Assembly (NCBI GenBank): GCA_046861645.1
Contig: JBHHUM010000051.1
Span: forward strand, 1-14,416
Source of the DNA: Fidelibacterota bacterium
GTDB lineage: Bacteria; Fidelibacterota; Marinisomatia; Marinisomatales; UBA2128
Direction: 5' to 3'
Length of the DNA stretch: 14,416 nt
Below, piece after piece: positions 269 through 14,070 of this stretch (position 1 is the stretch's first letter; the number at the start of each line of letters is the position of its first letter). The position numbers were made by a program, and so were the translations under genes. Under the pieces are notes generated by a model. It had not been told where the DNA came from and did no database searches. It was given only the letters and a program-made list of their open reading frames with translations.

Positions 269-733
269 TTAGTCTTCTGAATAGGAGATCTTCTTATTAG
301 AAAAGAAGAGTTCGTTTACCAAGACTGTGTGAGTGGACACTCCAGGCAGATCATTTTGGATTGAGCGGACGACTTGGTTCAAATCTTGAATATCTCTTGT
401 ACGAATTTTAATGGTGATATGTTTCTCGTCAACTGTTGTGTTTGCAACTCTGACACCATTAATTTTTAATATGTATTTAATAGTAGCTTCTTCAACCTCT
501 GTTGTTAAAGATGTCTGAAAAATTATATCAACGTAAGCTATAATTGGTTTTCCAAGGAGGTCATGGTCTAAGTCAACAGTAAACTTTTTGATATAACCAG
601 CCGCGGAGAGATTGTTTACTCTTCTGGTTACGGCCTGCCTTGTGAGGCCAATTAGCCTTCCCAACTCAATGAAGGGAATCCGACCATCATCCTGTAGAAC
701 ATCCAAGATCTTAAAGTCAATATTGTCAAGCAT
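269..733 (-). CDS. Lrp/AsnC family transcriptional regulator (154 aa)
   Basis: N-terminal MLDNIDFKILDVLQDDGRIPFIELGRLIGLTRQAVTRRVNNLSAAGYIKKF is the AsnC-type HTH. It is followed by the LGKPIIAYVDI linker and a RAM-like C-terminal domain. RBS GAGGGGAGG at 749-741. Confidence 0.93.
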   Translation of the reverse strand: MLDNIDFKILDVLQDDGRIPFIELGRLIGLTRQAVTRRVNNLSAAGYIKKFTVDLDHDLLGKPIIAYVDIIFQTSLTTEVEEATIKYILKINGVRVANTTVDEKHITIKIRTRDIQDLNQVVRSIQNDLPGVSTHTVLVNELFFSNKKISYSED

Positions 734-893: not shown

Positions 894-955
894 TGTAACA
901 TTGTGTCCATATTATCAAGCAGTGGAACAAAGATAGAAACAACTTGGGAGGAAAT

Positions 956-3577
956 ATGAACAGAATAAATACAAGCCTGTTATATATCCTTTTGTGCCTT
1001 TTTCCGGTTGCAGCAATGGCACAGGGAACAATTACAGGTACAGTAACAGACAGTGATGGAAGTGCTGTTGTAGGCGCCAACGTTTTCCTCGATGGCACGA
1101 ACATGGGAGACGCCACTGACGCCAACGGTGATTTTACTATCGCTGATGTCCCCGCAGGCGGCTACACAATAATAGCCAGCGCTATTGGCTATAAAACAGG
1201 TAAAGATGCCATTGTTATTACCGACGGTGTTGTAACTGCTAGCTTCACTTTGGGCACTGATATTCTTGGTATGGATGCTGTTGTAATAACAGGTGTTCTT
1301 AATCCGACATCCAAACTTGAGTCGAGCGTTGCTATTTCCACAGCGGATGCCGTGGAAATTTCTCAACGTGCCCCAAGGAATACGGCCGATCTTCTGAAAT
1401 ACATTCCAGGGTTCTATGTTGAGAGCTCCGGTGGCGAAGGTGGAAACAACCTCTTCACCCGCGGGATTCCCGCTGATGGTAGTTTCCGTTACGTGTCAGT
1501 ACAGGAAGATGGGATGCCAGTTTTTAATGCACCGGAGTGCATGTTTTTCAATGTGGACCTTGCAGTGAGGATGGACGAAAATATCCAACGTATGGAGAGT
1601 GTCCGCGGTGGCTCCGGATCAATATTAGCTTCTAATGCTGCAGGTGGCATCATCAATTACATCAGTAAAACGGGTGGTGCTAAATTTGGCGGGTCAGCAA
1701 AATTTACCACTGGAGATTATGGAATGTACCGCACAGATTTAGAATTTGGTGGCCCTCTTGGGGAGAATATCCGCTATCACATGGGTGGCTTTTATCGTAC
1801 AGATCAGGGGATTCGACCCACTGGTTTTACCGCTAATCAAGGTGGTCAAATTAAAGGCAACCTGACCTACTTGATGGATAAAGGGTACATTCGGTTGTAC
1901 GGGAAATATCTCAACGATCGCAATGTTTTTTACCTGCCGGTCCCCCTAAGTGGTTTAGATGAAGAACTGGAAGGTTTTGATGCCAACTATGGCACGATGA
2001 CCAGTCTAGATTTACTCTATCTCAATGTACGTAAGCCCGAGGGCCGCGGATATCAAGAGCAGTATCTAGATGACGGTATGCATCCTACCCTGTATACAGT
2101 TGGCAGCGAATTGTCGTATGAACTAAGTGACAATCTCTTGCTGCGCAACAAGATGAAACGCTCAGTTCTGGATCATCAGTTCAACGCCATTTTCTCATTG
2201 AACGATCCATCTCTGGCAGGTGATTATGCTACTGCGGCCGGTGTTACTGATCCGGTTTGGAGTTATGTCAGAGGAGAAGGTGCTGGAGATACTATTAGCG
2301 ACATCAGTAACCTCAATGGCAACGGATTGGTAGTGGATGTCGGTTGGTGGGCAGTTACCATGCCCATGAATGATTTTGCCAACGATTTATCATTGACAAG
2401 AAGTTTGGGCAGTCATGATGTTACCTTAGGGTATTGGTTTTCCTATGATAAACAGGAAGCACACTGGTGGTGGCATAACGTACTAATGGAGATAGCTGAA
2501 AATCCGCGTGCATTAGATTTACTGGATAGTGATACTGGTATCTATTACACGGATAACGGATTTTCCAAGTATGGATCCATGTACTTGAACTATGAATTCA
2601 CCAATTTCGTAAACGCCTTTTACCTGAATGATGAATTCACCATAGGTGACATGACGATTAATGCCGGATTGCGATCCGAATCGGGTACAATAAACGGAAT
2701 GACTGAAAACACTCAAAACTACGATATGGCTGACACCACAACTATGGCTGATGATGCTGTTCTGTATGGAGATGGTACCTATGGAACCTGGGGTTTTGAG
2801 TATGATGAGCTGGCGTGGTCCGTAGGGTTGAACTACAAAATGAGTGATAACATGGCAGTGTTTGGTCGTGCTAGCAACGGTTTCCGGGCACCAGATGACA
2901 ACAATCTTGTGTTTTCCAAGGCTGAGGGATCCCGAGTTGAGGATATATCTCAATTTGAGATAGGCGGAAAATACAATTCACCAAACTTGGCAACATTTGC
3001 GACTTTCTTCTACAGCACATTAAATGACTTCCCGTTCGGCGACGAAGTCGTAGGTGATGACGGATCAATTACCAACTTGACTCGTTACGCCGATGCTATA
3101 GCAATGGGAACTGAGATTGAATTAATTGCCAAGCTTGGCAATATTGGTCTTAATTTCACTGGGACCGTTCAAGATATAACCTACAGGGACTATGTCTTCA
3201 CAATAGGTGGAGTAACCACGGACTTTGAAGGCAAACAAGTCCGCCGTATTCCCAAGATCTTTTTCACCCTGATGCCATCATATACCATGGGTGATTTGTT
3301 TGTCAATGTGACCATACAGCATTTTGGCGACCGCTTTACGGATGATGCCAACACTGAAAGCGCCAAACTACCCGGGTTTATCCAGTTTAACGCTGGAGCG
3401 ACCTATCAATGGGGTGATCTAGCGTTTTCGGTAAATGCGACTAACTTGACCAATACAATTGGTCTTACGGAAGGGAATCCTCGAACTGAGTCAGTGCTGG
3501 CTGGTGAGAAATCCTTCCGTATGGCCCGTCCTATCATGGGTCGTTCACTTATAGCATCCTTGGCCTACAATTTTTAA
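956..3577 (+). CDS. TonB-dependent outer-membrane receptor, probably sugar/disaccharide-specific, with an N-terminal carboxypeptidase-regulatory-like domain
   Basis: True start is probably ATG 956 (GGAGG RBS), not TTG 944. Features: signal peptide ending AMA|Q, GTITGTVTDSDGSAVVGANV...TDANGDFTIADVPAGGYTIIASAIGY domain, TonB-box-like DAVVITG, plug motifs ADLLKYIPGFYV and IQRMESVRGG...AAGGIINYISK, C-terminal NLTN...GRSLIASLAYNF ending in Phe. Confidence 0.95.
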   Translation: MNRINTSLLYILLCLFPVAAMAQGTITGTVTDSDGSAVVGANVFLDGTNMGDATDANGDFTIADVPAGGYTIIASAIGYKTGKDAIVITDGVVTASFTLGTDILGMDAVVITGVLNPTSKLESSVAISTADAVEISQRAPRNTADLLKYIPGFYVESSGGEGGNNLFTRGIPADGSFRYVSVQEDGMPVFNAPECMFFNVDLAVRMDENIQRMESVRGGSGSILASNAAGGIINYISKTGGAKFGGSAKFTTGDYGMYRTDLEFGGPLGENIRYHMGGFYRTDQGIRPTGFTANQGGQIKGNLTYLMDKGYIRLYGKYLNDRNVFYLPVPLSGLDEELEGFDANYGTMTSLDLLYLNVRKPEGRGYQEQYLDDGMHPTLYTVGSELSYELSDNLLLRNKMKRSVLDHQFNAIFSLNDPSLAGDYATAAGVTDPVWSYVRGEGAGDTISDISNLNGNGLVVDVGWWAVTMPMNDFANDLSLTRSLGSHDVTLGYWFSYDKQEAHWWWHNVLMEIAENPRALDLLDSDTGIYYTDNGFSKYGSMYLNYEFTNFVNAFYLNDEFTIGDMTINAGLRSESGTINGMTENTQNYDMADTTTMADDAVLYGDGTYGTWGFEYDELAWSVGLNYKMSDNMAVFGRASNGFRAPDDNNLVFSKAEGSRVEDISQFEIGGKYNSPNLATFATFFYSTLNDFPFGDEVVGDDGSITNLTRYADAIAMGTEIELIAKLGNIGLNFTGTVQDITYRDYVFTIGGVTTDFEGKQVRRIPKIFFTLMPSYTMGDLFVNVTIQHFGDRFTDDANTESAKLPGFIQFNAGATYQWGDLAFSVNATNLTNTIGLTEGNPRTESVLAGEKSFRMARPIMGRSLIASLAYNF

Positions 3578-3610
3578 ACGAGGTTAGGAGGCGTTAAAGA
3601 CCTGATCTAG

Positions 3611-3649
3611 AAAGGTGGGGGGGCGCTAAAGCCTCCTCACCTTTTTCTT
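3611..3649 (+). terminator. Intrinsic terminator-like hairpin between the receptor and symporter 1
   Basis: AAAGGTGGGGGGGC (3611-3624) pairs with GCCTCCTCACCTTT (3631-3644): 14 bp including 2 G-U pairs, 6-nt loop, running into TTTTTCTT. Confidence 0.75.
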
Positions 3650-3712
3650 AATTCCGGCGATGGGGAATATTACACTCTATTCCAATAATCAAGGTTATGA
3701 ATAGGAGGTAAA

Positions 3713-5308
3713 GTGCAACCTTACAAACTACATCCAATTGATTTGTCGATTGCAGGACTATACGTAGTATTTGTTATTGGCTTGGGTATTTATCTGGCAA
3801 GGAGCCACAAGGGCGCAGAGGATTATTTTCTTGGAGGAAGGACATTCATCTGGCCCCTGGTTGGATTGTCTTTGTACGCCTCCAATATGTCGAGCAGTAG
3901 TCTGGTAGGCATGGCTGGGAGTGCTTATGGAACGGGCATCTCCGTTTTCAACTACGAATGGATGGCTGCTGTAATACTAGTTTTCTTTGCAATTTTCTTT
4001 TTACCCTATCTGCTCCGGTCGCAGGTATTCACATTACCGGAGTTTCTTGAGCGGCGATACGATTCCAGGTCACGATTCTACTTCTCAGGTCTCAATATTC
4101 TAATGACTATCGTTATTGACACTGCTGCCACACTGTATGCCGGAGCCATTGCTATAAGTATAGTCTACCCCGATATTCCCATGTGGATGACCATGATGAT
4201 ATTAGCCGTCATTGCCGGTATATACACCACGGCAGGAGGGCTGTCAGCCGTTATTCTGACTGATGCTATACAAGCCGTTCTTCTTACGGTTGGATCTCTA
4301 ATTATAACCGTTCTTGCTTTTATAAAGATTGGCTCTTGGAGTGCTGTTACCGAAGTGATCCCTCCCGAGATGCTTCACCTGTTTATGCCTTTGGATAATG
4401 AGTTTTTGCCTTGGCTTGGTGTATTAACTGGGGTACCTATTCTGGGGTTTTACTTCTGGTGTACAAATCAGTTTATGGTTCAGCGGGTTCTCGCAGCAAA
4501 AAATGTAGATCATGGCCGATGGGGCGCCTTGTTTGCAGGTCTTATGAAGCTCCCACCTATTTTCATTATGGTTTTACCGGGTACGATGGCTCGTGTACTT
4601 TATCCAGATCTTCCAAGAGCTGATATGGCGTTTCCGCAATTAGTATTTGATCTATTGCCAATTGGTATTCGTGGAGTGATTGTGGCTGGGTTTTTAGCCG
4701 CCATTATGTCCAGCTTGGATTCTACTCTTAATTCTGCTTCAACCCTTCTAACAATGGACTTTTTCAAAAAGCTTCGTCCCAAATCGAGTAGTCGAGAACT
4801 TATGTGGGCAGGTCGCATTTTCACTTTCATATTTATGATTTTGGCAGCTTCGTGGGCTCCACAAATATTGAAGTTTCCCTCTCTTTGGCATTATCTTCAG
4901 AGTGTGCTGGCCTATGCCAGCCCACCCATCGTAGCACTTTATTTGGTGGGTTTGTTCTGGAAAAGGGCAAATAGTCATGGAGCCTTTGCGGGAATAATCG
5001 TAGGCTTCATTTTGGGTATAGGACAACTCATTCTCAGATTTATCTTTCCGGATGCTTCATGGCTACCTCAAATTCATTTTCTTTATATGGCAGCTATCCT
5101 GTTAATATTATCGACTGTTACTATAATAGTTGTTAGTCTGTTAACAGAGGCTCCAGAGATGGAAAAGGTTAAGAGCTATATTTGGACACCTAAGCACTAC
5201 CGGGCGGAAACCGAGGAACTGAGATCTCTACCATGGTATAAGAATTATCGCATACTTGCTGGTGGACTACTTGTGCTGACTATTGTAGTCGTAGGCATGT
5301 TTGCATAG
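3713..5308 (+). CDS. Sodium:solute symporter (SLC5/SGLT-like), probable Na+/sugar cotransporter
   Basis: GTG start with AGGAGG RBS. Motifs EDYFLGGR, GLSLYASNMSS, TLPEFLERRYD, YTTAGGLSAVILTDAIQ, YFWCTNQFMVQRVLAAK and AAIMSSLDSTLNSASTLLTMDFF; many hydrophobic segments. Confidence 0.95.
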   Translation: MQPYKLHPIDLSIAGLYVVFVIGLGIYLARSHKGAEDYFLGGRTFIWPLVGLSLYASNMSSSSLVGMAGSAYGTGISVFNYEWMAAVILVFFAIFFLPYLLRSQVFTLPEFLERRYDSRSRFYFSGLNILMTIVIDTAATLYAGAIAISIVYPDIPMWMTMMILAVIAGIYTTAGGLSAVILTDAIQAVLLTVGSLIITVLAFIKIGSWSAVTEVIPPEMLHLFMPLDNEFLPWLGVLTGVPILGFYFWCTNQFMVQRVLAAKNVDHGRWGALFAGLMKLPPIFIMVLPGTMARVLYPDLPRADMAFPQLVFDLLPIGIRGVIVAGFLAAIMSSLDSTLNSASTLLTMDFFKKLRPKSSSRELMWAGRIFTFIFMILAASWAPQILKFPSLWHYLQSVLAYASPPIVALYLVGLFWKRANSHGAFAGIIVGFILGIGQLILRFIFPDASWLPQIHFLYMAAILLILSTVTIIVVSLLTEAPEMEKVKSYIWTPKHYRAETEELRSLPWYKNYRILAGGLLVLTIVVVGMFA

Positions 5309-5333
5309 GGTTTCAGACAGGGATAGATTCCTG

Positions 5334-6830
5334 ATGCATATCGCATTTCTTAATCCTCAGGGTAACTTTGATCCAACCGATTATGGGTGGACACAACACC
5401 CGGACTTTGGGGGGCAACTCGTTTATGTTAAGGAAGTTGCTTTGGCCATGGGTGAAGACGACCATCGTGTTGACATTATTACCAGGCAGATTGATGATAC
5501 AAATTGGCCAGAGTTTGCGGGGCGAATTGACGGTTATCTGGGGCACGATAATGTTCGTATTCTACGATTCCCTTGTGGACCACTCCATTTTCTTAAAAAG
5601 GAAGATATGTGGCCGTACATTTATGAATGGGTTAACAATATCTTGTTATTCTACGAAAACAAACCTGCCTTCCCGGATATCTTCACAGGGCACTATGCCG
5701 ATGGTGGTTTAGCAGGTGCGATGATTCTAAATGAGCGAGGAAAACCGTACACGTTCACTGGCCACAGCCTAGGTGCTCAAAAAATGGATAAGCTCATTGT
5801 AGGAGAAGAAATATTTTTAGAAAAAGTCCGCCATTTTCACTTTGATAAACGGATCACTGCTGAGAGATTAGCTATGAGTAGTGCTAGCAGAATAATCACA
5901 AGCACGAAACAAGAACGTATGATTCAATACGGGCACCATCTCTATGAAGATGCCGTTGATACATCTGACGAGGGGAAGTTTGCTGTCATTCCGCCGGGAG
6001 TAAATTTGAGCATATTTGCCAGAGATTTGCAGGACATTGAGATTCCCGAGAAAGTTGAGAGGATGATTAAGCGGGATATCAGCGAGTCTCGCCGAAATCT
6101 ACCGTTGGTTATCTGTTCCAGTCGATTAGACCGTAAGAAGAATCATCTTGATTTAGTCAAAGCGTGGGCTGTAAGCCCGAAACTGAAGGCATCTGCCAAC
6201 CTTGCGATTATTACTCGCGGGTCGGAGAATCCTATGGAAGAATGGATGGAACTGTTTTCAGGTGAAGAACAAACTGTCTTTGGGGAAATAATGGATGTTA
6301 TAGAAAATCATGATTTGGCCGGATGCATCACTGCATTCAGCTTGAACAGCCAAACAGAATTGGCAGCTTGTTATCAATACCTTGCAAAAAACTTGCAGGG
6401 AATCTTTGCACTAACTGCGGTTTATGAACCTTTTGGGTTGGCGCCGCTTGAAGCCATCGCATCTGGACTGCCTGTTGTCGTGACTAAAAATGGTGGACCC
6501 AGTGAGAGCTTGAAAGATAAAAACGGAAAATATGGGGTACTGGTTGATCCTCAAGACCCGCAAGACATTGCAGAAGGCATACTGCTCTTAGCGACAGACG
6601 TGAATTACTGGAAAAGAATGCGGGCAGTTGGAAGGAAGAGGGTTCAGGACAAATATACTTGGCAGAAGACGGCAAAGGGATACTTTGATGTATTTGAATC
6701 TATTCTATCTGATATAAGCCAACAGGACAAGAGGGTGGTTATCCCACAGTACTTTTACAACTCAGATGTTGTAGACGTGACACCGGAAGAATTGCGGGAT
6801 CGGTATTTTATGAAAGAGAAATCAGTGTGA
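5334..6830 (+). CDS. Sucrose-phosphate synthase-like GT4 glycosyltransferase (single domain, Halothermothrix orenii SPS type, no SPP domain)
   Basis: HIAFLNPQGNFDP...HPDFGGQLVYVKEV, FTGHSLGAQKM, STKQER..QYGHHLY, VIPPGVN, SSRLDRKKNH and YEPFGLAPLEAIASGLPVVVTKNGGP closely match H. orenii SPS as I recall it. Start is probably ATG 5334 rather than TTG 5301. Confidence 0.88.
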   Translation: MHIAFLNPQGNFDPTDYGWTQHPDFGGQLVYVKEVALAMGEDDHRVDIITRQIDDTNWPEFAGRIDGYLGHDNVRILRFPCGPLHFLKKEDMWPYIYEWVNNILLFYENKPAFPDIFTGHYADGGLAGAMILNERGKPYTFTGHSLGAQKMDKLIVGEEIFLEKVRHFHFDKRITAERLAMSSASRIITSTKQERMIQYGHHLYEDAVDTSDEGKFAVIPPGVNLSIFARDLQDIEIPEKVERMIKRDISESRRNLPLVICSSRLDRKKNHLDLVKAWAVSPKLKASANLAIITRGSENPMEEWMELFSGEEQTVFGEIMDVIENHDLAGCITAFSLNSQTELAACYQYLAKNLQGIFALTAVYEPFGLAPLEAIASGLPVVVTKNGGPSESLKDKNGKYGVLVDPQDPQDIAEGILLLATDVNYWKRMRAVGRKRVQDKYTWQKTAKGYFDVFESILSDISQQDKRVVIPQYFYNSDVVDVTPEELRDRYFMKEKSV

Positions 6831-7474
6831 TGATTGGGGATAAATTGATGATAAAGGAGAAACATCATCGGGCTGCCCGCGGCGTATTGGAGAACACTCT
6901 GACGGAAAGACAACAAGTGGCTGGCAGATATGTGATTACTATTGCGGGAGAATCGGGAAGTGGAAAATCTGAGACGGCCGTTGCATTGGCGGAAGGCTTT
7001 TCCAAGGATGGTGTGAACAGCGTTATTCTCCAGCAAGATGATTATTTTGTTTATCCCCCAAAGACCAACGATGCCACTCGCAGAAAAGACATTGGCTGGG
7101 TTGGTCCACAAGAGGTCCGTTTGGACCTGCTGGACAAACATCTTGAGATGGTCCTACAGGGATCGGAATCAATAACCAAGCCACTGGTCATTTACAAAGA
7201 AGATCAGACTACTGATGAAACGATATCCCTAACAAACGTTAAAGTCGTTATTGCTGAAGGTACCTATACAACCATGCTGAAAAATGCTAACTGCCGTGTC
7301 TTCATTGACCTGACCTATCATGCTACGAAAGCCTCTCGGTTAGAACGTGCCAGGGAAGAGCAAGATGACTTCATTGAGAAGGTCCTTAAAATTGAACACA
7401 AGATTATTTCAAAACACAAGGCGCGAGCAGATTTGATCATAGATCGGGACTTCAATGTCACGAAAGTCGGATAA
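6827..7474 (+). CDS. Uridine-kinase/phosphoribulokinase-fold P-loop kinase, substrate unknown
   Basis: ITIAGESGSGKS Walker A, QDDYF, VVIAEGTY and the RLERARE lid follow the PRK/URK/PanK pattern. The start (GTG 6827 or ATG 6830) overlaps the upstream TGA. Confidence 0.8.
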   Translation: MMIGDKLMIKEKHHRAARGVLENTLTERQQVAGRYVITIAGESGSGKSETAVALAEGFSKDGVNSVILQQDDYFVYPPKTNDATRRKDIGWVGPQEVRLDLLDKHLEMVLQGSESITKPLVIYKEDQTTDETISLTNVKVVIAEGTYTTMLKNANCRVFIDLTYHATKASRLERAREEQDDFIEKVLKIEHKIISKHKARADLIIDRDFNVTKVG

Positions 7475-8861
7475 GACTATAAATTCTCTGAGAGCCGAAC
7501 ATTTTCACCGCTCTTTTCTAAGTTCGGATAAGGGGCACATTCTGATGATCTCAAATCATGGGATTCATCAGTGGAATATTGTGCCGGGACTGCCTGATAC
7601 AGGGGGGCAGAACGTTTATGTAAACCAGTTTTCGGATATGCTGGCCAAGTTAGGTTTCAGAATCACCATTGCTAATCGTGGAGGATACAAGCATCCTATT
7701 ACCGATGAGATGCACAGGGGATTACATTATAAAAATGATAAACAGAGAATCCTCTACGTCGAGGATGACAAAGACAAGTTCATGCGCAAGGAGGATATGA
7801 ATGAGCAAATCCCAAAGCTCGCTCAGTTCCTCTTTGATTTTATCGAAAATGAAGGGACTATAGTTGACCTGATTATATCGCATTATTGGGATGGGTTTAA
7901 ACTGGGCGTTTTCTTCTGCCGGAAGTATGCCCACCCCATCAGGCACATATGGGTTCCCCATTCACTCGGGGTTGTGAAGAAACAGAATATGGACCCGAGT
8001 ACTTGGGAAATGCTTCGGATTGATGAACGGATTGAAATAGAGAGATCACTCCTTGAGGAATTGGATGGAGTTGTAGCCACCTCCACGGTAATTCGTAAAT
8101 CATTGCAGCAGGATTACAGCTGTAAGGAGCCCCTTTTTCTTCCGCCATGTATTGACACTGAGCGCTTCTATCCCCGTCAGATTGAAGATAACCACAATAT
8201 ATGGAAATTTCTCTCTGATTGTACAGATTTACCAGCGGACACTCTCCATCGGTATAAAATAGTTACTGAGATCAGTCGTACAGATCACACCAAGAGAAAG
8301 GATGTGCTGATTAAGGCATTTACACAGGTTCAACAGCGTGTTAAGGACTGTGTTCTGATCATTTCCATTGATGAAACGGAAGAGCAGCTATCAGCGGAGT
8401 TGCACAAGCTGATTGATAAACTCGGGATACGATCCCATACAGTAGTTATTGGTCATGAGCATGAACGCTTACCAGACATTTACAGGATCACAGATGTTTA
8501 CTGTTCTCCATCGGTTATGGAAGGTTTCGGGATGTCGGTGCAGGAAGCTGCCGCAACGGGGGTGCCTGTGGTGAGTAGTCGTTTGATTCCCTTTGCCGTT
8601 GAGTATTTAGCTGAAGGATATGGGGGTGAGCCGTTCTACAAAGGAAAAGGAGCGATTGTCGTTCAGGCAGATGATGTGGACAGATTCTCCATGGCGCTGG
8701 AGGAGCTGCTGGAGAATAACACACTTCGGTCCGAGATGGGCAGACAGGCATATCACATTACCATTCCGGAATTCACCTGGGAGCAAAAAGTTAAGGAGCT
8801 TTTGAGCGCCATTGACAGCATTCCTACCAGTGAAAAGGAGGGTGTTGGCGATTATGCCTGA
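7455..8861 (+). CDS. GT4 glycosyltransferase, SPS/mannosylfructose-phosphate synthase (MfpsA)-like; specificity unknown
   Basis: LMISNHG...GLPDTGGQNVYV, SHYWDG, WVPHSLG, PPCIDTERFYP, ISRTDHTK and the EX7E motif MEGFGMSVQEAAATGVPVV. The DTGGQ.VYV signature marks the SPS/SuS/MfpsA clade. Confidence 0.85.
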   Translation: MSRKSDKTINSLRAEHFHRSFLSSDKGHILMISNHGIHQWNIVPGLPDTGGQNVYVNQFSDMLAKLGFRITIANRGGYKHPITDEMHRGLHYKNDKQRILYVEDDKDKFMRKEDMNEQIPKLAQFLFDFIENEGTIVDLIISHYWDGFKLGVFFCRKYAHPIRHIWVPHSLGVVKKQNMDPSTWEMLRIDERIEIERSLLEELDGVVATSTVIRKSLQQDYSCKEPLFLPPCIDTERFYPRQIEDNHNIWKFLSDCTDLPADTLHRYKIVTEISRTDHTKRKDVLIKAFTQVQQRVKDCVLIISIDETEEQLSAELHKLIDKLGIRSHTVVIGHEHERLPDIYRITDVYCSPSVMEGFGMSVQEAAATGVPVVSSRLIPFAVEYLAEGYGGEPFYKGKGAIVVQADDVDRFSMALEELLENNTLRSEMGRQAYHITIPEFTWEQKVKELLSAIDSIPTSEKEGVGDYA

Positions 8862-9948
8862 CTTTTTAGAACATGACAAGCTCAAAAAGATTCTTCAGTC
8901 TTCATCTGTAAGTAGGTTGCCTATGGAAAAGTTGATTGCTCTTTTTAGGGAAGAGGATGCTCTGAATGAAATGCTTCCGGACAGGAAATGGGTGCAGGAT
9001 CCGCGGGACAAATCAGTGACGCTTTTTAATCCTTCCCGATCTAAAAGACCCCACGAGCACAAAGACCGTGTAAAGACTGTTAAAAACAACTCATGTCCTA
9101 TATGTGAAGGACATACCACAGATGTTATTGATGTCGCTGAGTTGAGCGAAGGATTTACATTTATTAACAAGAATCTGTATCCCATCGTATATCCATTTGC
9201 GTCTGATAGTAACAGAGACGAACAAACTGCTTTTGGTTTCCATCTCCTGCAATGGACATCTTCCTATCACAATCGTGATTGGCACAACATGCCGCTTAGT
9301 GATCGTATTATAGTACTGCAGCGTTTGGCGGCCCTGGAAGAAATGTTTCTGTATGGGACAAAAACTGGAATTACTGGAAATGAGCAGTGGAACAACGACA
9401 AGGGTATTAGCAGGTTTGTATCCATTATCAAGAACTATGGTCGCTCAGCAGGGTGCTCTCTAATCCACGGTCACCAGCAGATTGCATTCAGCAATGTGAT
9501 GCCGGGGCGATTTCAGAATAACCTCAGTTTTTACCAGAGAAAGCAGCGCTCATTTTCTGCCTATATGTTTGAGCAAACCCCAGTAGACTTGGTCTTGAAA
9601 GATTATGGACAAGCCGTTTTGGCGGTTCCTTACTTCATGAAGCGACCTTACGATATGATTCTTATGATTAAGGAGACTAAAAAGCAATATCTGTGCGAGC
9701 TTAGTCATTCAGAAATTGAATCTGTTGCAGAAGGGCTCTGTGATACTATGAGACTGTACCGGAATATTCTACCTAAGATTGGACGAGATGTAGCGTTTAA
9801 TTGGGTTCTACACAACGGCCCAGGGGTTGGACTGTATTTTGAGTTTTTACCTAATACCCAAGAGATGGGAGGATTTGAAAAGTTGGGTTTATGGGTTTGT
9901 CAAAGCAACCCGGAGATGGCGGCAGCAGACCTGAGAGAAGTACTGTGA
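8854..9948 (+). CDS. GalT-like (HIT superfamily) hexose-1-phosphate nucleotidyltransferase / NDP-sugar phosphorylase
   Basis: RSKRPH, zinc-binding CPIC, NLYP and KNYGRSAGCSLIHGHQQI (catalytic HxHxQ). Start is probably ATG 8854 (GGAGGG RBS, ATGCCTGA overlap with the upstream stop) rather than TTG 8812. Confidence 0.85.
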   Translation: MPDFLEHDKLKKILQSSSVSRLPMEKLIALFREEDALNEMLPDRKWVQDPRDKSVTLFNPSRSKRPHEHKDRVKTVKNNSCPICEGHTTDVIDVAELSEGFTFINKNLYPIVYPFASDSNRDEQTAFGFHLLQWTSSYHNRDWHNMPLSDRIIVLQRLAALEEMFLYGTKTGITGNEQWNNDKGISRFVSIIKNYGRSAGCSLIHGHQQIAFSNVMPGRFQNNLSFYQRKQRSFSAYMFEQTPVDLVLKDYGQAVLAVPYFMKRPYDMILMIKETKKQYLCELSHSEIESVAEGLCDTMRLYRNILPKIGRDVAFNWVLHNGPGVGLYFEFLPNTQEMGGFEKLGLWVCQSNPEMAAADLREVL

Positions 9949-9967
9949 TTATTGAGGATTCTCACAA

Positions 9968-11839
9968 ATGATTGATCTAATAATAGTATTAGTCTTTATT
10001 GCCTACAGTGTTAGCGCTGGTTTCCGGGCCAAGTCTAAAGCCTCCAGAAACCTTGAGGAGTACTTCTTAGCTGGCCGGACGATTCCTGGCTGGAAAGCAG
10101 GTTTCAGCATGGCTGCCACTCAGTATGCGGCAGACACACCACTATTGGTCATGGGGTTGATTGCTACCGGCGGCGTCTTTATGCTTTGGCGGTTGTGGAT
10201 ATATGGTCTGGCATTTCTCATGATGGGATTTATCCTGGGCCGGGCCTGGCGCAGGTCTATGGTTCTAACAGATGCGGAGTTTACAGAAATCCGCTACAGC
10301 GGCCGCGGTGTTGTTGCCCTCCGTGGACTCAAAGCCGTTTATTATGGCACTGTGATTAACTGCACAGTAATGGCTATGGTTCTAGTGGCCGCCATTAGAA
10401 TTTCGGAGACATTTCTGGTTTGGCATGAGTGGCTTCCCGAAGGAATCTATAACACAATACTAATGTGGGTGCAGTCCATCGGCGCTCAACTCTTCTCTGG
10501 TGCGACAGGATTAGACCCATGGATTGCCACGGCTAATAATATAGTCAGTATAATTGTAATTCTGGCGTTTGTGGCTCTCTATTCCACTACAGGTGGTCTC
10601 CGCAGTGTAATTGCCACGGATATCGTACAGTTTTCCATCGCTATGATTGCTACACTGATTTATGCCATTATCGCAGTTTCCAAGGCAGGAGGATTCGGCG
10701 GCATGATTGATAGGTTGGTAGCGCTTTACGGTGAGGCGCGTGCTGGAGAGATTTTGTCCTTCAGCCCGAACAGTTGGGATGCTGTGCTTCCATTCCTGGT
10801 GCTGATCGGGCTGCAGTGGTTTTTTCAGATGAACAGCGATGGAACCGGCTACCTTGCCCAGCGGACTATGGCTTGCCGTACGGATCGTGGAGCCCGGCAG
10901 GCAGGATTTATCTTTACAGTGGCACAGATTCTTGTCCGGTCTCTCTTCTGGCTGCCTATCGGTGTAGCGCTGCTGGTGATCTATCCGTACGATCCAGGAT
11001 CTGTAGGCAGCGAAACATTTGTAGCCGGCCGCGAAATCCTGTTTGCTACCGGCATCAAAGACCTCCTACCACCCGGCATCCGGGGATTGATGCTGACAGG
11101 ATTACTGGCAGCGTTAGCTTCCACAATTGATACGCACCTGACATGGGGGGCAAGCTATTGGAGTAATGATATCTACAAGCGGATTGTGAACGAAGCGTGG
11201 CTTAAGAGGCAGCCGTCGTCACGAGAGTTGGTAATCGTGGCCCGTTTATCGAATCTGCTCATTCTTGGCATTGCACTGGTTATTATGGCTAATCTTGGTT
11301 CCATACAGGCAGCGTGGTATATTTCGCTTCTTTTCGGGGCAGGAATGGGTTCGGTTTTAGTACTGCGCTGGCTGTGGGAAAGGATAAACCTCTATTCGGA
11401 AGTAGCAGCCATCGCTACGTCTTTAATTGTGGCGCCGGTTATTCTCTTTACAATAGAAGACGAGTGGTTTCGATTGCTGCTTATGTCTGCGGCCTCCACA
11501 ATTTCCGTCGTAGTTGTAACACTGCTGACGCCTGAGACTGAGCACAGCATCCTGGACAGGTTTTTCCGGAGGGTGAAGCCCTTAGGCTTCTGGAGAGGCA
11601 CTGCAAAGCGCTGCGGCATCGGCGCAGAAATCCCCCTCAAACAGTTTAAACAAGGAGCGTACCTGGTACTGACTACAGCCCTAACAATATTTCTACTGTT
11701 AGTAGGCATTGGAAAGCTCATTATTCCGGCTCCATCTAGCTCTTCTTTGTTTGCGTTCGCGTTGATAGTGTTGGGGTTGGTCAGCATAAAATTGTGGTGG
11801 GGTAAAGTGATTGTTGCTAAAGAGGTAGAAAATGATTGA
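9968..11839 (+). CDS. Second sodium:solute symporter (SSS family, different subfamily from 3713-5308)
   Basis: EEYFLAGRTIPGW, SMAATQYAADTPL, YSTTGGLRSVIATDIVQF, GTGYLAQRTMAC and AALASTIDTHLTWGASYWSNDIY; GAGGA RBS; polytopic membrane protein. Confidence 0.93.
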   Translation: MIDLIIVLVFIAYSVSAGFRAKSKASRNLEEYFLAGRTIPGWKAGFSMAATQYAADTPLLVMGLIATGGVFMLWRLWIYGLAFLMMGFILGRAWRRSMVLTDAEFTEIRYSGRGVVALRGLKAVYYGTVINCTVMAMVLVAAIRISETFLVWHEWLPEGIYNTILMWVQSIGAQLFSGATGLDPWIATANNIVSIIVILAFVALYSTTGGLRSVIATDIVQFSIAMIATLIYAIIAVSKAGGFGGMIDRLVALYGEARAGEILSFSPNSWDAVLPFLVLIGLQWFFQMNSDGTGYLAQRTMACRTDRGARQAGFIFTVAQILVRSLFWLPIGVALLVIYPYDPGSVGSETFVAGREILFATGIKDLLPPGIRGLMLTGLLAALASTIDTHLTWGASYWSNDIYKRIVNEAWLKRQPSSRELVIVARLSNLLILGIALVIMANLGSIQAAWYISLLFGAGMGSVLVLRWLWERINLYSEVAAIATSLIVAPVILFTIEDEWFRLLLMSAASTISVVVVTLLTPETEHSILDRFFRRVKPLGFWRGTAKRCGIGAEIPLKQFKQGAYLVLTTALTIFLLLVGIGKLIIPAPSSSSLFAFALIVLGLVSIKLWWGKVIVAKEVEND

Positions 11840-11890
11840 CGGTAAATAGTACAAAAATAGGGCTTTAATAAAAGAGGAAAAAAGACAGAA

Positions 11891-13108
11891 ATGAGATTTC
11901 TTGATGATTACAGGGGAATTGTTAGTGATGAGGTGTTGGAGACCATCTGCTCCAAGGCGGCCACTTTGAGCGGTATCAGAATGGCACACGTAAACGCTAC
12001 TGCTTATGGGGGTGGTGTAGCGGAGATCCTTAGCAATCTTATCCTCCTGATGAATGATGTGGGGGTAAGGGCGGACTGGCGCGTGCTGCATGGAACACCG
12101 GAATTTTTCGAGGTAACTAAGAAATTTCATAACACACTGCAAGGGGACAATGAAATATCCTTTTCGCAGGAGGAACTTGACCTCTACAAATACACAAATG
12201 AGAAGTTTGCCAAGTTTGTCGATCTTGGTCATGATGTGGTAATTATACATGACCCTCAGCCCGCGGCCCTGGTACACTACATTGAGCACTCCCATCCTTG
12301 GGTCTGGCGCTGCCATATTGATATTACCAAGCCTAACCAGAAGGCGTGGGACTTTATGGCGCAGTATGTGGTAGAATATAATAAGATGATTGTCTCAGCT
12401 GAAGCTTACAAGCGCCCCGATCTGCAGCTTGAACAGCAGATTATGGCGCCGTCCATTGACCCACTGTCTAATAAAAATATGGATCTGTCGCAGAATACAA
12501 TTGATGACTACTTGACACGGGAGAATATTCCCACAGACAAGCCTATCATCACACAAGTCTCGCGCTTCGATCCGTGGAAGGATCCTGAGGGGGTACTTAG
12601 GGTATGGGAGGAAGTCAGGAAGGAAGTGGACTGCCGCCTGGTTTTCTGCTACAACATGGCTAGCGATGATCCGGAGGGAGTTCGCATATATGAGAAAATG
12701 GTCGCAGTGGTCAAGCAGCACATGGAAAATGGAGACGTCCTCTTTATACGCGGAGATGATCCTATTCTTGTGAATGTTCTCCAACGGTATTCCTCAGTGG
12801 TACTCCAGAAATCGATCCGGGAAGGATTCGCCCTGGTGGTAACAGAAGCGCTATGGAAGGGCACTCCTGTTGTGGCGTCGAATGTAGGGGGTATTCCGAC
12901 CCAGATCAAAGACGGAGAGACAGGGTTCTTAGTGGAGCCGCAGGACATTTCCGGATGTACAGCCAAGGTCATTCAGCTTCTTCAGGATAGAGATTTGGCT
13001 GGCGAGATCGGGTCAAAAGCCCGGGAGTATGTGAGGGAGAATTTTCTTATTACAAGGCACCTGCAAGATTATCTCAACTTATTGGTTGAACTGCTGGAAA
13101 GGAAATAA
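11891..13108 (+). CDS. treT: Trehalose glycosyltransferring synthase TreT-like GT4
   Basis: HVNATAYGGGVAEIL, FFEVTKKFHNTLQG, IIHDPQPAAL, WVWRCHID, PSIDPLSNKN, QVSRFDPWKDP and QKSIREGFALVVTEALWKGTPVVASNVGGIP are TreT family signatures. Confidence 0.88.
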   Translation: MRFLDDYRGIVSDEVLETICSKAATLSGIRMAHVNATAYGGGVAEILSNLILLMNDVGVRADWRVLHGTPEFFEVTKKFHNTLQGDNEISFSQEELDLYKYTNEKFAKFVDLGHDVVIIHDPQPAALVHYIEHSHPWVWRCHIDITKPNQKAWDFMAQYVVEYNKMIVSAEAYKRPDLQLEQQIMAPSIDPLSNKNMDLSQNTIDDYLTRENIPTDKPIITQVSRFDPWKDPEGVLRVWEEVRKEVDCRLVFCYNMASDDPEGVRIYEKMVAVVKQHMENGDVLFIRGDDPILVNVLQRYSSVVLQKSIREGFALVVTEALWKGTPVVASNVGGIPTQIKDGETGFLVEPQDISGCTAKVIQLLQDRDLAGEIGSKAREYVRENFLITRHLQDYLNLLVELLERK

Positions 13109-13110
13109 TT

Positions 13111-14070
13111 GTGAGCGGAGCTGAAAAGTACATTGGTGGTATTGATCTGGGCGGTACCAAGATAGCCGCCATTGTATCCACTGAAGAGGGAAAGATTCTT
13201 GCTAAAGACAAGGTTTCCACGCCCAATGGAAAGTTCAGTGTGATCGCAGCAACAATGGTACAGAGTCTTACCAGAGTATGTGATATAGCTTCCGTTTCCA
13301 TCGAGGATCTCCATGCTATTGGGGTGGGCGTGCCCGGTTCGGTAGATGAACAAGGTAATGTGGCTGTAATGCCTAACTTGGGGCTGAAGAACATTGCCGT
13401 TGCTTCGGTATTGAGCGAAGTATTTGACAAGCCCGTTGCCGTAGAGAATGATGTAAATCTGGCTACACTGGCTGAATATTTCCTTGGGGCAGGAGAAGGG
13501 CTGAATTCTCTGTACGGCATTGTGCCGGGGACAGGAGTTGGCGGCGGTTACGTCGCGAATGGGAAGATTGTGAGAGGGAAAAACGGAACGGCCGGCGAGA
13601 TTGGTCACATGGTGGTGAAGATGGATGGAACCCGGTGTGGTTGCGGGCAAAAAGGGTGTCTGGAAGCGTTTGTCAGCAAGATTGGATTCGCCCAGGAGTT
13701 GCGGGGAGCAGTCTTGAGAGGCGAAGATTCAGTTTTGATGAAACACAAGGATAATGATTTTAAAACGGTTAACAGCCCAGCCCTGAGAAGTGCGTGGGAT
13801 GCAGGTGATAAGCTGACCCGCCAACTTCTAGTCGAGCAGGCTCGCATACTTGGTATTGCTGTGGCGAATGTTGTAAATCTCACCGGAGTCGAAGGCTTCT
13901 TCATAGGCGGGGGAGTCTATGAGATTCTTGGAAATGTCCTTCTCCCCATTATCTGGGAGACTGCCGAGCGACACGCAATTGGCGGCGGGATGTCTGGTGT
14001 GCGGTTGGCCTTGTCGGGATTGGGAGGAGACGCCGTCGCAATGGGGGCTGCTCTATTAGCGAGAAAATAG
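13111..14070 (+). CDS. ROK family sugar kinase (glucokinase-like)
   Basis: GIDLGGTKI, IGVGVPG, VENDVN, GTGVGGG, AGEIGHM and the zinc motif CGCGQKGCLEAF. No N-terminal HTH, so a kinase rather than a repressor. GTG start 2 nt after the treT stop. Confidence 0.93.
   Translation: MSGAEKYIGGIDLGGTKIAAIVSTEEGKILAKDKVSTPNGKFSVIAATMVQSLTRVCDIASVSIEDLHAIGVGVPGSVDEQGNVAVMPNLGLKNIAVASVLSEVFDKPVAVENDVNLATLAEYFLGAGEGLNSLYGIVPGTGVGGGYVANGKIVRGKNGTAGEIGHMVVKMDGTRCGCGQKGCLEAFVSKIGFAQELRGAVLRGEDSVLMKHKDNDFKTVNSPALRSAWDAGDKLTRQLLVEQARILGIAVANVVNLTGVEGFFIGGGVYEILGNVLLPIIWETAERHAIGGGMSGVRLALSGLGGDAVAMGAALLARK

Follow-up and report, generated by a model that had tools for sequence, protein, structure and literature searches.

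Gene content of the locus

The window analysed here is one entire contig of 14.4 kb from a marine metagenome-assembled genome (MAG) of 184 contigs and 94% completeness; gene order is known up to the contig end, and the genome-wide absences given below refer to this MAG. Positions 944-14070 are occupied by the main genes, nine in number, co-directional on the plus strand and separated by at most 136 bp or by short overlaps, with a regulator gene divergent from them:

269..733, minus strand: AsnC/Lrp-type regulator (PF13412 and PF13404), divergent from the operon
944..3577, plus strand: TonB-dependent receptor (TBDR) with PF13715 (CarboxypepD_reg), PF07715 (Plug) and PF00593 (barrel), no SusD partner
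3713..5308, plus strand: SSS1, SGLT/YidK-like Na+/solute symporter (PF00474, 256 bits)
5301..6830, likely start 5334, plus strand: GT4a, Halothermothrix orenii-type sucrose-phosphate synthase (SPS; PDB 2r60)
6827..7474, plus strand: PRK/uridine-kinase-fold (Udk) P-loop kinase (PF00485, 40 bits)
7455..8861, plus strand: GT4b, second retaining GT4, of an uncharacterised SPS/MshA-like family (3c48)
8812..9948, likely start about 8923, plus strand: GalT-like enzyme, GalT branch of the HIT superfamily (PDB 1z84)
9968..11839, plus strand: SSS2, long divergent Na+/solute symporter (PF00474, 114 bits)
11891..13108, plus strand: TreT-type trehalose glycosyltransferring synthase, GT4 (PF21269, 193 bits)
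13111..14070, plus strand: ROK-family sugar kinase, glucokinase-like (PF00480, 202 bits)
1189..9965, plus strand: module B, an accessory block comprising the TBDR barrel, SSS1, GT4a, the kinase, GT4b and the GalT-like gene

The first-pass annotation of this DNA had described importers, three GT4 enzymes, a GalT-like protein and two kinases in a cluster devoid of glycoside hydrolases (GHs) and HAD phosphatases. All nine genes were recovered, and a domain scan of the ten window ORFs found no GH or HAD/phosphatase domain.

Two modules with different histories

The same annotation had treated the genes as a single cluster, which comparison with relatives contradicts: the locus is a composite of module A (TBDR-SSS2-TreT-ROK), common to relatives, and module B, accessory with respect to a genome of the same genus (G003), and not one evolutionary unit. 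At the TBDR end, DNA identity between the window and G003 is 83% and confined to window positions 1-1188, and no counterpart of 1189-9965 was found in that genome. The boundary falls inside the TBDR gene, of which the first ~245 bases are common to the same-genus locus and the remainder belongs to the accessory block; the TBDR proteins of the two genomes are 33% identical, and TreT is 95% identical. Two other contigs cover the borders: X6, from an independent sample, spans the breakpoint (980-1386), and X8, also an independent marine contig, matches the window from 9966 onward but is dissimilar upstream, the divergence lying exactly at 9966. The GC content of module B is 0.445, compared with 0.494 for 9966-14070 and 0.431 genome-wide. 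SPS is present in 1 of 120 relatives, and the GalT-like gene is absent from the 40 relatives searched, save one 27-bit match, G003 and the other TreT carriers being among the genomes without it.

Such sharply bordered insertion is what would be expected if adjacency implied no common pathway, that is, if module B were an unrelated cassette for glycoside or glycoconjugate synthesis inserted beside a trehalose locus, with a GT4b acceptor other than fructose-6-phosphate (F6P), for example inositol phosphate as in MshA. We regard this as quite improbable. The block carries its own TBDR barrel and SSS1, and it is tightly packed against SSS2, with 20 bp between the GalT-like gene and the symporter.

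Module A and the slot behind SSS2

Among 121 genomes of the order, SSS2 was detected in 11, and a TBDR gene lies directly upstream of it in 6 of these 11 and beside the operon in G024. Among the ten relatives, the gene directly after SSS2 is TreT in five (G003, G024, G047, G056 and G063, the last across a contig break), a bPGM-GH65 phosphorylase fusion in two (G015 and G053) and a TreC-like GH13 in one (G098; NF008183 619 bits, above the cut-off of 535); in the other two (G029 and G081) the contig ends after SSS2 and the slot is not visible. Because GH65 phosphorylases and the TreC-like GH13 alternate with it behind TBDR-SSS2, TreT occupies the slot of a cleaving enzyme, which fits the cleaving role that it had been assigned from the window. 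Trehalase-like GHs are encoded near the locus in G053 and G056, and TreT is followed by ROK in G003, G006, G024, G056 and G063. The nearest named relatives of the window TreT are Fidelibacterota/Marinimicrobia proteins; it matches PDB 2x6q (375 bits) and 6zj4 (330 bits), and scores 417 bits with NF041139, under the cut-off of 775. The ROK kinase likewise scores under the cut-off of its model (TIGR00744, 175 bits against 260).

We propose that SSS2 imports trehalose or another alpha-glucoside. The AsnC/Lrp-type protein at 269..733 is a candidate regulator of module A; ORFs of 154-156 aa, matched by length and place, stand at the equivalent position in G003, G098 and G029. SSS1 (NF007790 317 bits, under the cut-off of 401) has orthologues of 75% identity inside the SSS2 loci of G015 and G029, the former with a GH65 gene, and a homologue of 42% identity in the GH13-SSS-SSS2-TreT locus of G056. 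Sucrose or fructose is its proposed substrate.

Glycosyltransferases and kinase of module B

GT4a is close to the H. orenii SPS (HoSPS; PDB 2r60, E 1.7e-164, 551 bits), with 281 bits for TIGR02472, under the cut-off of 576, and keeps the equivalents of the F6P-phosphate ligands, namely, K in 'FLKKED' and R in 'FDKRITAE'. GT4b is more distant from solved structures, matching 3c48 (MshA, 73 bits), 2r60 (59 bits) and 6kih (57 bits), and in its family K112 is conserved in 39/40 sequences and R192 and H169 in 40/40. In T. elongatus SPS (TeSPS), R105 and R178 are described as binding the phosphate of sucrose 6-phosphate (S6P) (PMC7264703). Equivalents of both are kept in GT4a and GT4b, whereas Gln replaces R178 in the sucrose synthases 4rbn and 3s27. 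Retention of these phosphate ligands, Arg/Lys as in SPS and MshA, implies that GT4a and GT4b should use a sugar phosphate and not free sucrose; for a reverse route, the P-loop kinase would then have to phosphorylate a disaccharide. The first-pass annotation had these enzymes cleaving a free non-reducing disaccharide, which the residues of GT4a and GT4b speak against; its reverse GT reactions are retained, with a disaccharide-kinase step, missing from that scheme, now required.

The P-loop kinase (structure model pLDDT 89.8) has homologues of 40-55% identity fused to SPS-like GT4s, to GH13_18 domains and, in 8 clusters, to GH100-like domains. The best PDB match of the fused GH13_18 domain is 6s9v, a sucrose 6F-phosphate (S6FP) phosphorylase (675 bits; next match 440), and S6FP phosphorylases are reported to be invariably clustered with a kinase (Tauzin 2019, PMC6521584). 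AgaSK, by published account, phosphorylates C6 of the glucose of sucrose and not C6 of the fructose (PMC7688924), and a sequence-level link from the window kinase to a characterised sucrose kinase, AgaSK included, was sought and not found. In G022, a homologue of 53% identity adjoins a GH100 invertase; G017 has SPS and the kinase without an importer or GalT-like gene. PfkB takes the same region of homologous operons, and the two kinases share an operon in 0 of 80. Given the GH100 adjacency, the GH100-like fusions and this lack of co-occurrence with PfkB, a plain fructokinase would be simpler than a sucrose kinase; we propose that the enzyme is a sucrose(-6F) or fructose kinase.

The GalT-like enzyme and its conserved operons

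The GalT-like protein has no Pfam match at E<=0.001 and only 34 and 25 bits with the NCBIfam GalT models. Its best PDB match is 1z84 (At5g18200; E 2e-8), with the classical GalTs trailing at E 0.09-0.4, and it belongs to a large family (1092 homologues at E<=0.001) in which CxxC (C95, C98) and H219-G-H221-Q-Q223 (HxHxQ) are invariant across 24 sequences. At5g18200 is identified as an ADP-glucose phosphorylase (bioRxiv 10.64898/2026.09.13.751320), in keeping with the phosphorylase activity first suggested for the window protein, and we propose that the latter is an NDP-glucose phosphorylase.

A GT4a or GT4b gene shares an operon with the GalT-like gene in 50 of 80 loci, in Anaerolineae, Spirochaetes and others; GT4b stands immediately upstream in 43 of the 80, and in three (L033, L045 and L068) the two form a single-ORF fusion. 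The coupling of GT and GalT-like enzyme that the first pass had read from one locus is thus borne out, although the expected wider co-occurrence does not extend to TBDR, SSS and TreT, which accompany the GalT-like gene in 0 of 80 loci elsewhere. This last count would suit an unrelated cassette, as would MshA as the top GT4b match and IolC as the best model of the PfkB partner (181 bits); SPP-like phosphatases, GH32-like genes, the HoSPS-type GT4a and the fusions of kinase to sucrose enzymes instead indicate a fructoside.

The remaining partners of the GT4/GalT-like core are either LacI/ABC importers with a kinase or an SPP phosphatase. LacI/SBP/ABC permease importers occur in 20 of the 80 operons, never with SPP, and together with a kinase in 13; SPP occurs in 11, one of which has a kinase as well (L057, the exception, with PfkB). 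In 10-11 operons, most of them from Spirochaetes, SPP is the immediate neighbour of GT4b, and there the GT4b/GalT-like pair must work in synthesis. Nor are the homologous loci hydrolase-free, since 12 contain a GH32-like gene; with the 10 that contain SPP, this makes 22 of the 50 GT4-linked operons, so that the absence of phosphatases and hydrolases, on which the first-pass reading leaned, extends to homologous clusters only in part.

Hydrolases and phosphatases elsewhere in the genome

The S6PP family gave no match genome-wide in the MAG; the control search matched in 10/14 genomes. GH37, GH65 and GH100 had no genome matches either, and the GH13s of the genome are amylase-like. No credible GH32 was found: the stronger 'GH32N' match is a GH130 mannobiose phosphorylase and was rejected, and the weaker (C21; 20.9 bits, below cut-off) fits no NCBIfam family. 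For these families, the lack of hydrolases and phosphatases described for the window is supported by the genome. Neither GlgC nor GalT was detected above cut-off in the genome.

Direction of the pathway

We infer substrates, reaction directions and transporter specificities from these gene contexts and residues. The best reading, to which we give somewhat less than an even chance, is NDP-dependent catabolism by reverse GT reactions, drained by an NDP-glucose phosphorylase. Module A would import trehalose or a related alpha-glucoside, TreT in reverse would convert the disaccharide and NDP to NDP-glucose and glucose, and ROK would phosphorylate the glucose released. Module B, added en bloc, would import a sucrose-type fructoside, which the P-loop kinase would phosphorylate and the SPS-like GT4s would cleave in reverse (sucrose-6F-P + NDP -> NDP-glucose + fructose-6-P). 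The GalT-like HIT enzyme (NDP-glucose + Pi -> glucose-1-P + NDP) might then recycle the nucleotide, pull both GT equilibria and drain the NDP-glucose that TreT produces. Module B would achieve the same net reaction as a kinase plus a sucrose-6F-phosphate phosphorylase, the GT4/HIT pair replacing GH13_18.

This catabolic reading is favoured because the window combines importers with a kinase in a genome without S6PP; because the GT4s, coupled and fused to GalT-like enzymes, keep the S6P-phosphate ligands; because kinase homologues are fused to S6FP-phosphorylase-like GH13_18 domains and SPS-like GTs; and because of the relationship to 1z84, the alternation in the TreT slot, the reversibility of TreT and the lack of GH37, GH65 and GH100. 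It is weakened by the SPP beside GT4b and the GH32-like genes of homologous operons, by a kinase that fits a fructokinase, with AgaSK acting on glucose C6 and sharing no sequence link, by the gene content of G017, and by the discussion of HoSPS in the literature as an osmolyte (sucrose) synthesis enzyme. A further weakness is that characterised SSS transporters take up monosaccharides and other small solutes and are not known to transport disaccharides.

Several of these points would suit compatible-solute synthesis from scavenged hexoses, a doubtful but serious alternative. SSS1 and SSS2 would import fructose and glucose, with the P-loop kinase as fructokinase and ROK as glucokinase; the GalT-like enzyme would make NDP-glucose from glucose-1-P and NDP, saving one ATP relative to a pyrophosphorylase; SPS and GT4b would make sucrose-6F-P, to be dephosphorylated by an unspecific phosphatase; and TreT would build trehalose from NDP-glucose and free glucose. 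The SPP-adjoined operons, the similarity of GT4a to HoSPS and a kinase linked or fused to GH100 invertase but never found with PfkB are as this scheme predicts. The free glucose acceptor of TreT would be obtainable via an importer, the GalT-like enzyme could be the NDP-glucose route in a genome with no GlgC or GalT above cut-off, and brine metagenomes share a small fraction of the window's sampled words. Yet the genome has no S6PP-family phosphatase, and a kinase stands where the phosphatase would be needed; the operon begins with a TBDR and has two importers; relatives fill the TreT slot with a catabolic GH65 phosphorylase or TreC-like GH13; SPP is absent from the Type I homologous loci, which are operons of ABC importers under LacI control; and the GalT-like gene is missing from G003 and the other carriers of TreT.

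SPS and NDP-glucose phosphorylase both catalyse reactions close to equilibrium. TreT is reportedly reversible (PMC1769515). The locus might accordingly act as a bidirectional sucrose/trehalose buffer whose near-equilibrium GT4 and HIT steps take their direction from mass action and the accessory kinase, forward with plentiful hexose phosphates or high salt and backward with external or stored disaccharide as carbon. The GT4b/GalT-like pair does accompany SPP in certain lineages and importers plus kinases in others. However, no operon has both SPP and importers, and L057 alone combines SPP with a kinase, which suggests single-direction loci, and the genome offers no phosphatase with which synthesis could be finished; we consider a buffer unlikely.

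Comparison with known systems

In the catabolic reading, the positions that hydrolases or phosphorylases hold in relatives are taken by GTs, a kinase and a GalT-like enzyme; this would point to a so far undescribed breakdown of sucrose- and trehalose-like sugars. The SPS/SPP synthesis route (H. orenii SPS 2r60, T. elongatus SPS 6kih) resembles module B in the catalytic His and phosphate ligands kept by GT4a and in the SPP that adjoins GT4b in other phyla, but window and genome are without SPP and have a kinase, importers and the GalT-like enzyme instead. The latter shares with At5g18200 the GalT branch, the HxHxQ motif and the Zn-site cysteines, albeit at low identity, in a bacterial family under the Pfam and NCBIfam GalT cut-offs.

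In the R. gnavus/Thermoanaerobacterium sucrose-6F-P route (AgaSK, RgSPP, TtSPP), as described in PMC6521584 and PMC7688924, a P-loop or PfkB kinase adjoins the enzyme that converts sucrose-6F-P to G1P and F6P; the net reaction proposed for module B is the same, and some homologues of the window kinase carry a TtSPP-like GH13_18 domain in the same protein. The window itself has no GH13_18, and cleavage would proceed via GT4, catalytic NDP and the HIT phosphorylase.

The TreT of T. litoralis, whose gene reportedly lies in a trehalose/maltose transporter cluster, is likewise a GT4 encoded beside an importer. The window differs in that its importer is TBDR plus SSS and not ABC, a ROK kinase is attached, and the operon also encodes a candidate NDP-glucose phosphorylase, a feature of this window alone. 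The reaction of the T. litoralis enzyme, trehalose + ADP <-> ADP-glucose + glucose, is reported as reversible (Qu et al. 2004, cited in PMC1769515).

The Xanthomonas sux locus relies on an amylosucrase (GH13) and a transporter of the MFS type, unlike the window. It also combines a TBDR for sucrose with an inner-membrane transporter that serves a small disaccharide, as is proposed for the window.

Gene content of the locus

The window corresponds to contig C8 (14,416 bases) of a 184-contig, 2.51-Mb MAG with an estimated completeness of 94.47% and contamination of 0.14%. Nine co-directional ORFs, overlapping slightly or lying no more than 136 bp apart, fill positions 944–14070 and were identified by Pfam, NCBIfam and PDB searches:

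944–3577, + strand: TonB-dependent receptor (TBDR) with CarboxypepD_reg, Plug and barrel domains
3713–5308, + strand: SSS1, an SGLT/YidK-like SSS symporter
5301–6830, + strand: GT4a, a glycosyltransferase (GT) matching the Halothermothrix-type sucrose-phosphate synthase (SPS) of H. orenii (HoSPS, 2r60) with 551 bits
6827–7474, + strand: PRK-like kinase with a P-loop PRK/uridine-kinase fold
7455–8861, + strand: GT4b, a second GT4 with best matches to MshA 3c48 (73 bits), 2r60 (59) and 6kih (57)
8812–9948, + strand: GalT-like protein, best PDB match 1z84 (E 2e-8)
9968–11839, + strand: SSS2, a long, divergent SSS symporter
11891–13108, + strand: TreT-like GT, 375 bits to 2x6q
13111–14070, + strand: ROK kinase (PF00480, 202 bits)

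No GH or HAD domain was detected in the ten window ORFs scanned, bearing out the gene content described in the first-pass annotation. A SusC/SusD polysaccharide utilisation locus was rejected because the TBDR scored only 59.6 bits against the SusC-type model TIGR04056 (cut-off 368) and no SusD ORF lies in the 136 bp between the TBDR and SSS1. In a scan for promoters and terminators, the counts matched the level of shuffled sequence (27 vs 26.1; 16 vs 12.0), and the scan is mute on operon structure.

Composite origin of the locus

In a genome of the same genus, G003, the corresponding genes are arranged in the order AsnC, TBDR, SSS2, TreT, ROK, with amino acid identities to the window of 96%, 95% and 76% for SSS2, TreT and ROK, respectively. 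DNA homology between G003 and the window is confined to positions 1–1188 (83%) and 9966–14070 (90%), and the TBDRs share 33% protein identity. Because this homology stops at 1188 and resumes at 9966, we delineated 1189–9965 as an accessory block, module B, which encompasses the rest of the TBDR, SSS1, GT4a, the kinase, GT4b and the GalT-like gene, as distinct from module A (TBDR-SSS2-TreT-ROK). The comparison with G003 thus reveals a composite of two modules, not the single co-directional unit originally envisaged. With a GC content of 0.445, module B lies between module A (0.494) and the genome as a whole (0.431). Of 120 relatives in the order, one yielded SPS and four the kinase; the GalT-like gene was absent from the 40 relatives searched, save for one 27-bit match.

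Contigs from other sequencing runs were compared with both breakpoints. In an independent marine sample (runs X5 and X6), a contig over 980–1386 bridges the left breakpoint and further contigs span much of module B, with 7216–8658 almost uncovered, which is a gap in cover only. A 3.2-kb contig from a run of another study, X8, matches 9966–12924 and is unlike the window exactly before 9966. In X1, possibly the source sample of the window, a 12.5-kb contig spans 1862–14391. That modules A and B are unrelated and merely adjacent is, in our estimation, very unlikely.

A further X1 contig passes directly from base 79 to base 14362, leaving out the entire locus; its shorter side comprises only 30 letters, and the junction could reflect either an assembly-graph artefact or a variant without the locus.

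TreT occupies the slot of a phosphorylase or hydrolase

SSS2 is present in 11 and TreT in 7 of the 121 genomes of the order. A TBDR is encoded directly upstream of SSS2 in the host genome (G000), G003, G053, G063, G081 and G098, and beside the operon in G024. Among the ten relatives, TreT directly follows SSS2 in G003, G024, G047, G056 and G063 (in the last, across a contig break), and ROK follows TreT in G003, G024, G056 and G063, as well as in G006, but not in G047. In G015 and G053, SSS2 is instead directly followed by a beta-phosphoglucomutase-GH65 fusion and then a distant PRK-like kinase (35–38% identity), and in G098 by a TreC-like GH13 (NF008183, 619 bits, above the cut-off of 535); in G029 and G081, the contig ends after SSS2. 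Trehalase/GH63-like genes are also located near SSS2 in G053 and G056, the latter with a GH13 in addition. TreT-ROK thus holds the slot taken in sister loci by a phosphorylase or hydrolase plus a kinase, and this is our best evidence that TreT cleaves an imported disaccharide, a role for which it had already been put forward and which the alternation with GH65 phosphorylase and TreC-like GH13 upholds.

The assignment as TreT (EC 2.4.1.245) is supported by the TreT-specific N-terminal domain PF21269 (193 bits) and by a 330-bit match to 6zj4 in addition to 2x6q; against the NCBIfam equivalog NF041139, a Thermococcales model, the protein scores 416.8 bits, under the cut-off of 775. The Thermococcus litoralis enzyme is encoded in a transporter context. 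Its reaction is described as reversible in passages of PMC1769515.

The G015 and G053 fusions (L111 4833–8006 and L112 4824–7967) are proteins of ~1050 aa combining an N-terminal beta-phosphoglucomutase-type HAD domain with a full GH65 phosphorylase. The SSS2 homologues of G015 (C145:27923–29776) and G029 (C122:29581–31431), both same-genus genomes, each contain one in-frame TAA within the match, which might mean that the gene is shorter, that both genomes share a pseudogene or that the codon is a sequencing artefact.

GT4a and GT4b resemble phospho-sugar enzymes

GT4a is a close homologue of a structurally characterised SPS (EC 2.4.1.14), aligning with 2r60 over residues 11–490 (E 1.7e-164), and scores 280.7 bits against NCBIfam TIGR02472, under the cut-off of 576. 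For the T. elongatus enzyme (TeSPS), excerpts of PMC7264703 assign binding of the sucrose-6-P phosphate to R105 and R178 and an essential role to H158. Alignments place K/R at both of these phosphate positions in GT4a, HoSPS and MshA, with GT4a also carrying GHSLG, and in the GT4b family (40 sequences) K112 is conserved in 39 and R192 and H169 in all 40. Both GTs thus possess the phosphate-binding basic residues and the catalytic His, with residue roles as given in those excerpts. Sucrose synthase (EC 2.4.1.13), which acts on free sucrose and NDP, was considered and rejected for both proteins: GT4a and GT4b have Arg at the TeSPS R178 position, occupied by Gln in 4rbn and 3s27, and are 468–509 aa long, compared with about 800 for sucrose synthase with its N-terminal regulatory domains.

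From their sequences, GT4a and GT4b therefore look like phospho-sugar enzymes, unlike sucrose synthase, and given the retained K/R ligands, running them backward would call for a phosphorylated disaccharide. The earlier suggestion that the SPS-type GTs cleave a free disaccharide accordingly has to give way, as these enzymes would need a phosphorylated substrate.

In two related loci (L032, 11107–13536, and L046), GT4a homologues of 809–824 aa, much longer forms of the HoSPS type, are encoded directly behind the GalT-like gene and could be SPS-SPP fusions (SPP, sucrose-phosphate phosphatase).

The GalT-like enzyme and its conserved operons

The GalT-like protein contains the HxHxQ nucleophile motif and CxxC zinc site of GalT-branch HIT proteins, with C95, C98 and H219-G-H221-Q-Q223 invariant in 24 homologues. 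It has no Pfam match at E<=0.001 (PF01087 is not reached, and only DUF4931_N appears at E<=10, with 16 bits) and falls below the NCBIfam cut-offs for TIGR00209 (34 vs 448 bits) and NF008724 (25.5 vs 102 bits). The best-matching structure, 1z84, is At5g18200, named ADP-glucose phosphorylase in part of bioRxiv 10.64898/2026.09.13.751320, and no galactose genes lie near the GalT-like gene. On the basis of this structural ranking and the absent galactose genes, we propose that the GalT-like protein is an NDP-glucose phosphorylase, which would convert ADP-, UDP- or GDP-glucose to G1P.

The family comprises 1092 proteins at E<=0.001, from Anaerolineae, Spirochaetes, Marinimicrobia-like bacteria and others. 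We examined 80 loci with 44–54% identity to the GalT-like protein, from Anaerolineae, Spirochaetes, Competibacteraceae and others. By tblastn, GT4b lies directly upstream of the GalT-like gene in 43/80, and TBDR, SSS1, SSS2 and TreT were found in 0/80; in L033, L045 and L068, GT4b and the GalT-like protein form a single ORF of 825–871 aa. The postulated coupling of GT and GalT is thus borne out.

For gene content, we compared 80 operons, made up of the window and 79 loci; L006 was excluded because the ORF filter had lost its GalT-like ORF. In raw counts that ignore kinship, GT4a or GT4b is present in 50/80, with many GT4-less loci being contig-edge fragments or from Gammaproteobacteria. Counted likewise, LacI/SBP/ABC permease genes occur in 20/80, a PfkB kinase in 17, a PRK-like kinase in 8 (never together with PfkB), an SPP-like phosphatase in 11 and a GH32-like gene in 12. 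SPP and importers never share an operon, and SPP and a kinase do so only in L057. The expectation that homologous clusters would be free of hydrolases and phosphatases fails in part, with SPP or a GH32-like gene in 22 of the 50 GT4-linked operons. The SPP-bearing loci favor the main rival explanation, osmolyte synthesis from imported hexoses, which we consider unlikely overall but deserving of weight.

Two further gene arrangements were observed. In L022, L028, L035 and L036 (Competibacteraceae and other Gammaproteobacteria), no GT4 gene adjoins the GalT-like gene, which precedes an endonuclease III-like gene and, in all except L036, a DUF1841 gene; the partner or role of the GalT-like protein may differ in these four loci. 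In a third architecture (L013, L031, L037, L071 and L075; Anaerolineales/Thermoflexales), the GalT-like gene is accompanied by a HoSPS-type GT4a, PfkB and then a CYTH-CHAD protein, sometimes preceded by a SixA-like histidine phosphatase, and often with an 8-oxoguanine-deaminase-like gene upstream. A polyphosphate kinase gene is present in L013, L031 and L061.

Links of the PRK-like kinase to sucrose metabolism

The kinase (PF00485, 40 bits) is a P-loop kinase of the kind found with sucrose enzymes. Its structural neighbors in the ESM Atlas include the AgaSK alpha-galactosidase/sucrose-kinase cluster (TM 0.92), GH36C-kinase clusters, one GH13-kinase cluster and one fusion of a GT to a kinase. 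Searching the PDB by sequence profile and by fold did not recover the AgaSK link: apart from 3c8u, the matches were generic entries of the PRK, Udk and PanK types, with the AgaSK kinase domain not among them. A search limited to longer proteins yielded 22 matches with a kinase domain at 40–59% identity, mostly fusions: 9 to full-length SPS-like GT4s, 8 to GH100-like domains and 2 to GH13. Within the order, the kinase adjoins a GH100 gene in G022 (53% identity) and SPS in G017 (62% and 60% identity). The GH13 part of one fusion, P0247, matches 6s9v, a sucrose 6(F)-phosphate phosphorylase, with 675 bits (next match, 440). AgaSK phosphorylates C6 of the glucose of sucrose (sections of PMC7688924), and a kinase is invariably encoded close to sucrose-6F-phosphate (S6FP) phosphorylases (sections of PMC6521584).

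These associations firmly connect the kinase with sucrose metabolism. Its links to GH100 and its mutual exclusion with PfkB favor fructose as a candidate substrate, and a fructokinase reading would again suit osmolyte synthesis; the fusion to S6FP phosphorylase favors the other candidate, sucrose, with phosphorylation at 6F.

In both P0247 and P0248, the PRK-like kinase is fused to a GH13_18 domain nearest to 6s9v, and it is possible that this fusion answers where S6FP comes from in S6FP phosphorylase pathways.

Sugar metabolism in the host genome

The 94.47%-complete host genome yielded zero matches to S6PP (sucrose-phosphate phosphatase), GH37, GH65 and GH100; neither the S6PP family model PF05116 nor tblastn with the SPP proteins of related loci returned a match. 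The genome-wide check for spp, GH32, GH37 and GH65 thus agrees with the initial expectation, its GH32 hits being marginal and not credible: the stronger GH32N match, G000:C141:2754–3749, is a GH130 beta-1,2-mannobiose phosphorylase (NF052550, 477 bits, above the cut-off of 450), and the weaker, on C21, is below cut-off and fits no NCBIfam family. The three GH13s of this genome resemble amylases or cyclomaltodextrinases. For PfkB fructokinase, its search turned up just a weak ribokinase-like ORF, and a GlgC/GalU search returned six NTP-transferase family genes, none above either cut-off.

A possible hydrolase-free route of disaccharide catabolism

Our preferred reading, held with slightly less than even confidence, is that the window encodes a hydrolase-free scavenging operon. 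TreT would run in reverse, with ROK trapping the released glucose, and a sucrose-type sugar would pass through the kinase, then an SPS-type GT4 acting in reverse, then the GalT-like NDP-glucose phosphorylase; this HIT enzyme would recycle NDP for both the TreT and the SPS-type branches. The equilibria of SPS and NDP-sugar phosphorylase are modest, so such a route should be feasible. In this form, the original idea of a reverse-glycosyltransferase, hydrolase-free locus retains its GT/GalT coupling and its TreT component, having lost the single unit, the unphosphorylated SPS substrate and the SPP/GH32-free homologous loci.

A broader proposal is possible, if doubtful: an SPS-like GT4 and a divergent GalT-branch HIT protein may jointly act as a widespread, hitherto unrecognised two-enzyme 'phosphorylase', interconverting a glycoside phosphate (most likely sucrose-6F-phosphate) plus Pi with hexose-1-P plus fructose-6-P via catalytic NDP-sugar. 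Accessory genes would set the direction, SPP for synthesis and kinase plus importer for catabolism, and in the window the pair would also provide the sink for trehalose degradation by TreT, making disaccharide catabolism complete without a GH. That the locus serves as a bidirectional buffer seems improbable to us. The literature searched, which excludes most subscription journals, contained no description of a bacterial GT4/GalT-like pair or of TreT in Marinimicrobia.

If hydrolase-free scavenging is correct, sugar catabolism can rely on GTs and a nucleotide-sugar phosphorylase in place of glycoside hydrolases and phosphorylases, such that CAZyme-based predictions would miss sucrose and trehalose consumers of this kind, and a function would be assigned to the large, uncharacterised GalT-like family and its conserved, sometimes fused GT4 partner. 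A P-loop kinase fused to S6FP phosphorylases could also help explain the source of their substrate. Even if the pathway is biosynthetic, ATP-saving formation of NDP-glucose from G1P and NDP would be a novelty in the synthesis of sucrose by bacteria.

Flanking genes

Right behind ROK, a 57-aa ORF (14096–14269, + strand) has a lipoprotein-like signal, with a hydrophobic run to SVSC followed by a Ser-rich stretch; with the end of the contig so close, at 14416, it could be either a fragment or the beginning of another gene. At the other end, an AsnC/Lrp-type gene (269–733, − strand), divergent from the operon, may be a candidate regulator of the locus. ORFs of 154–156 aa occupy the matching place by the TBDR/SSS genes in G003 (L089 4429–4893), G098 (L124 2978–3448) and G029 (L125 4127–4591).
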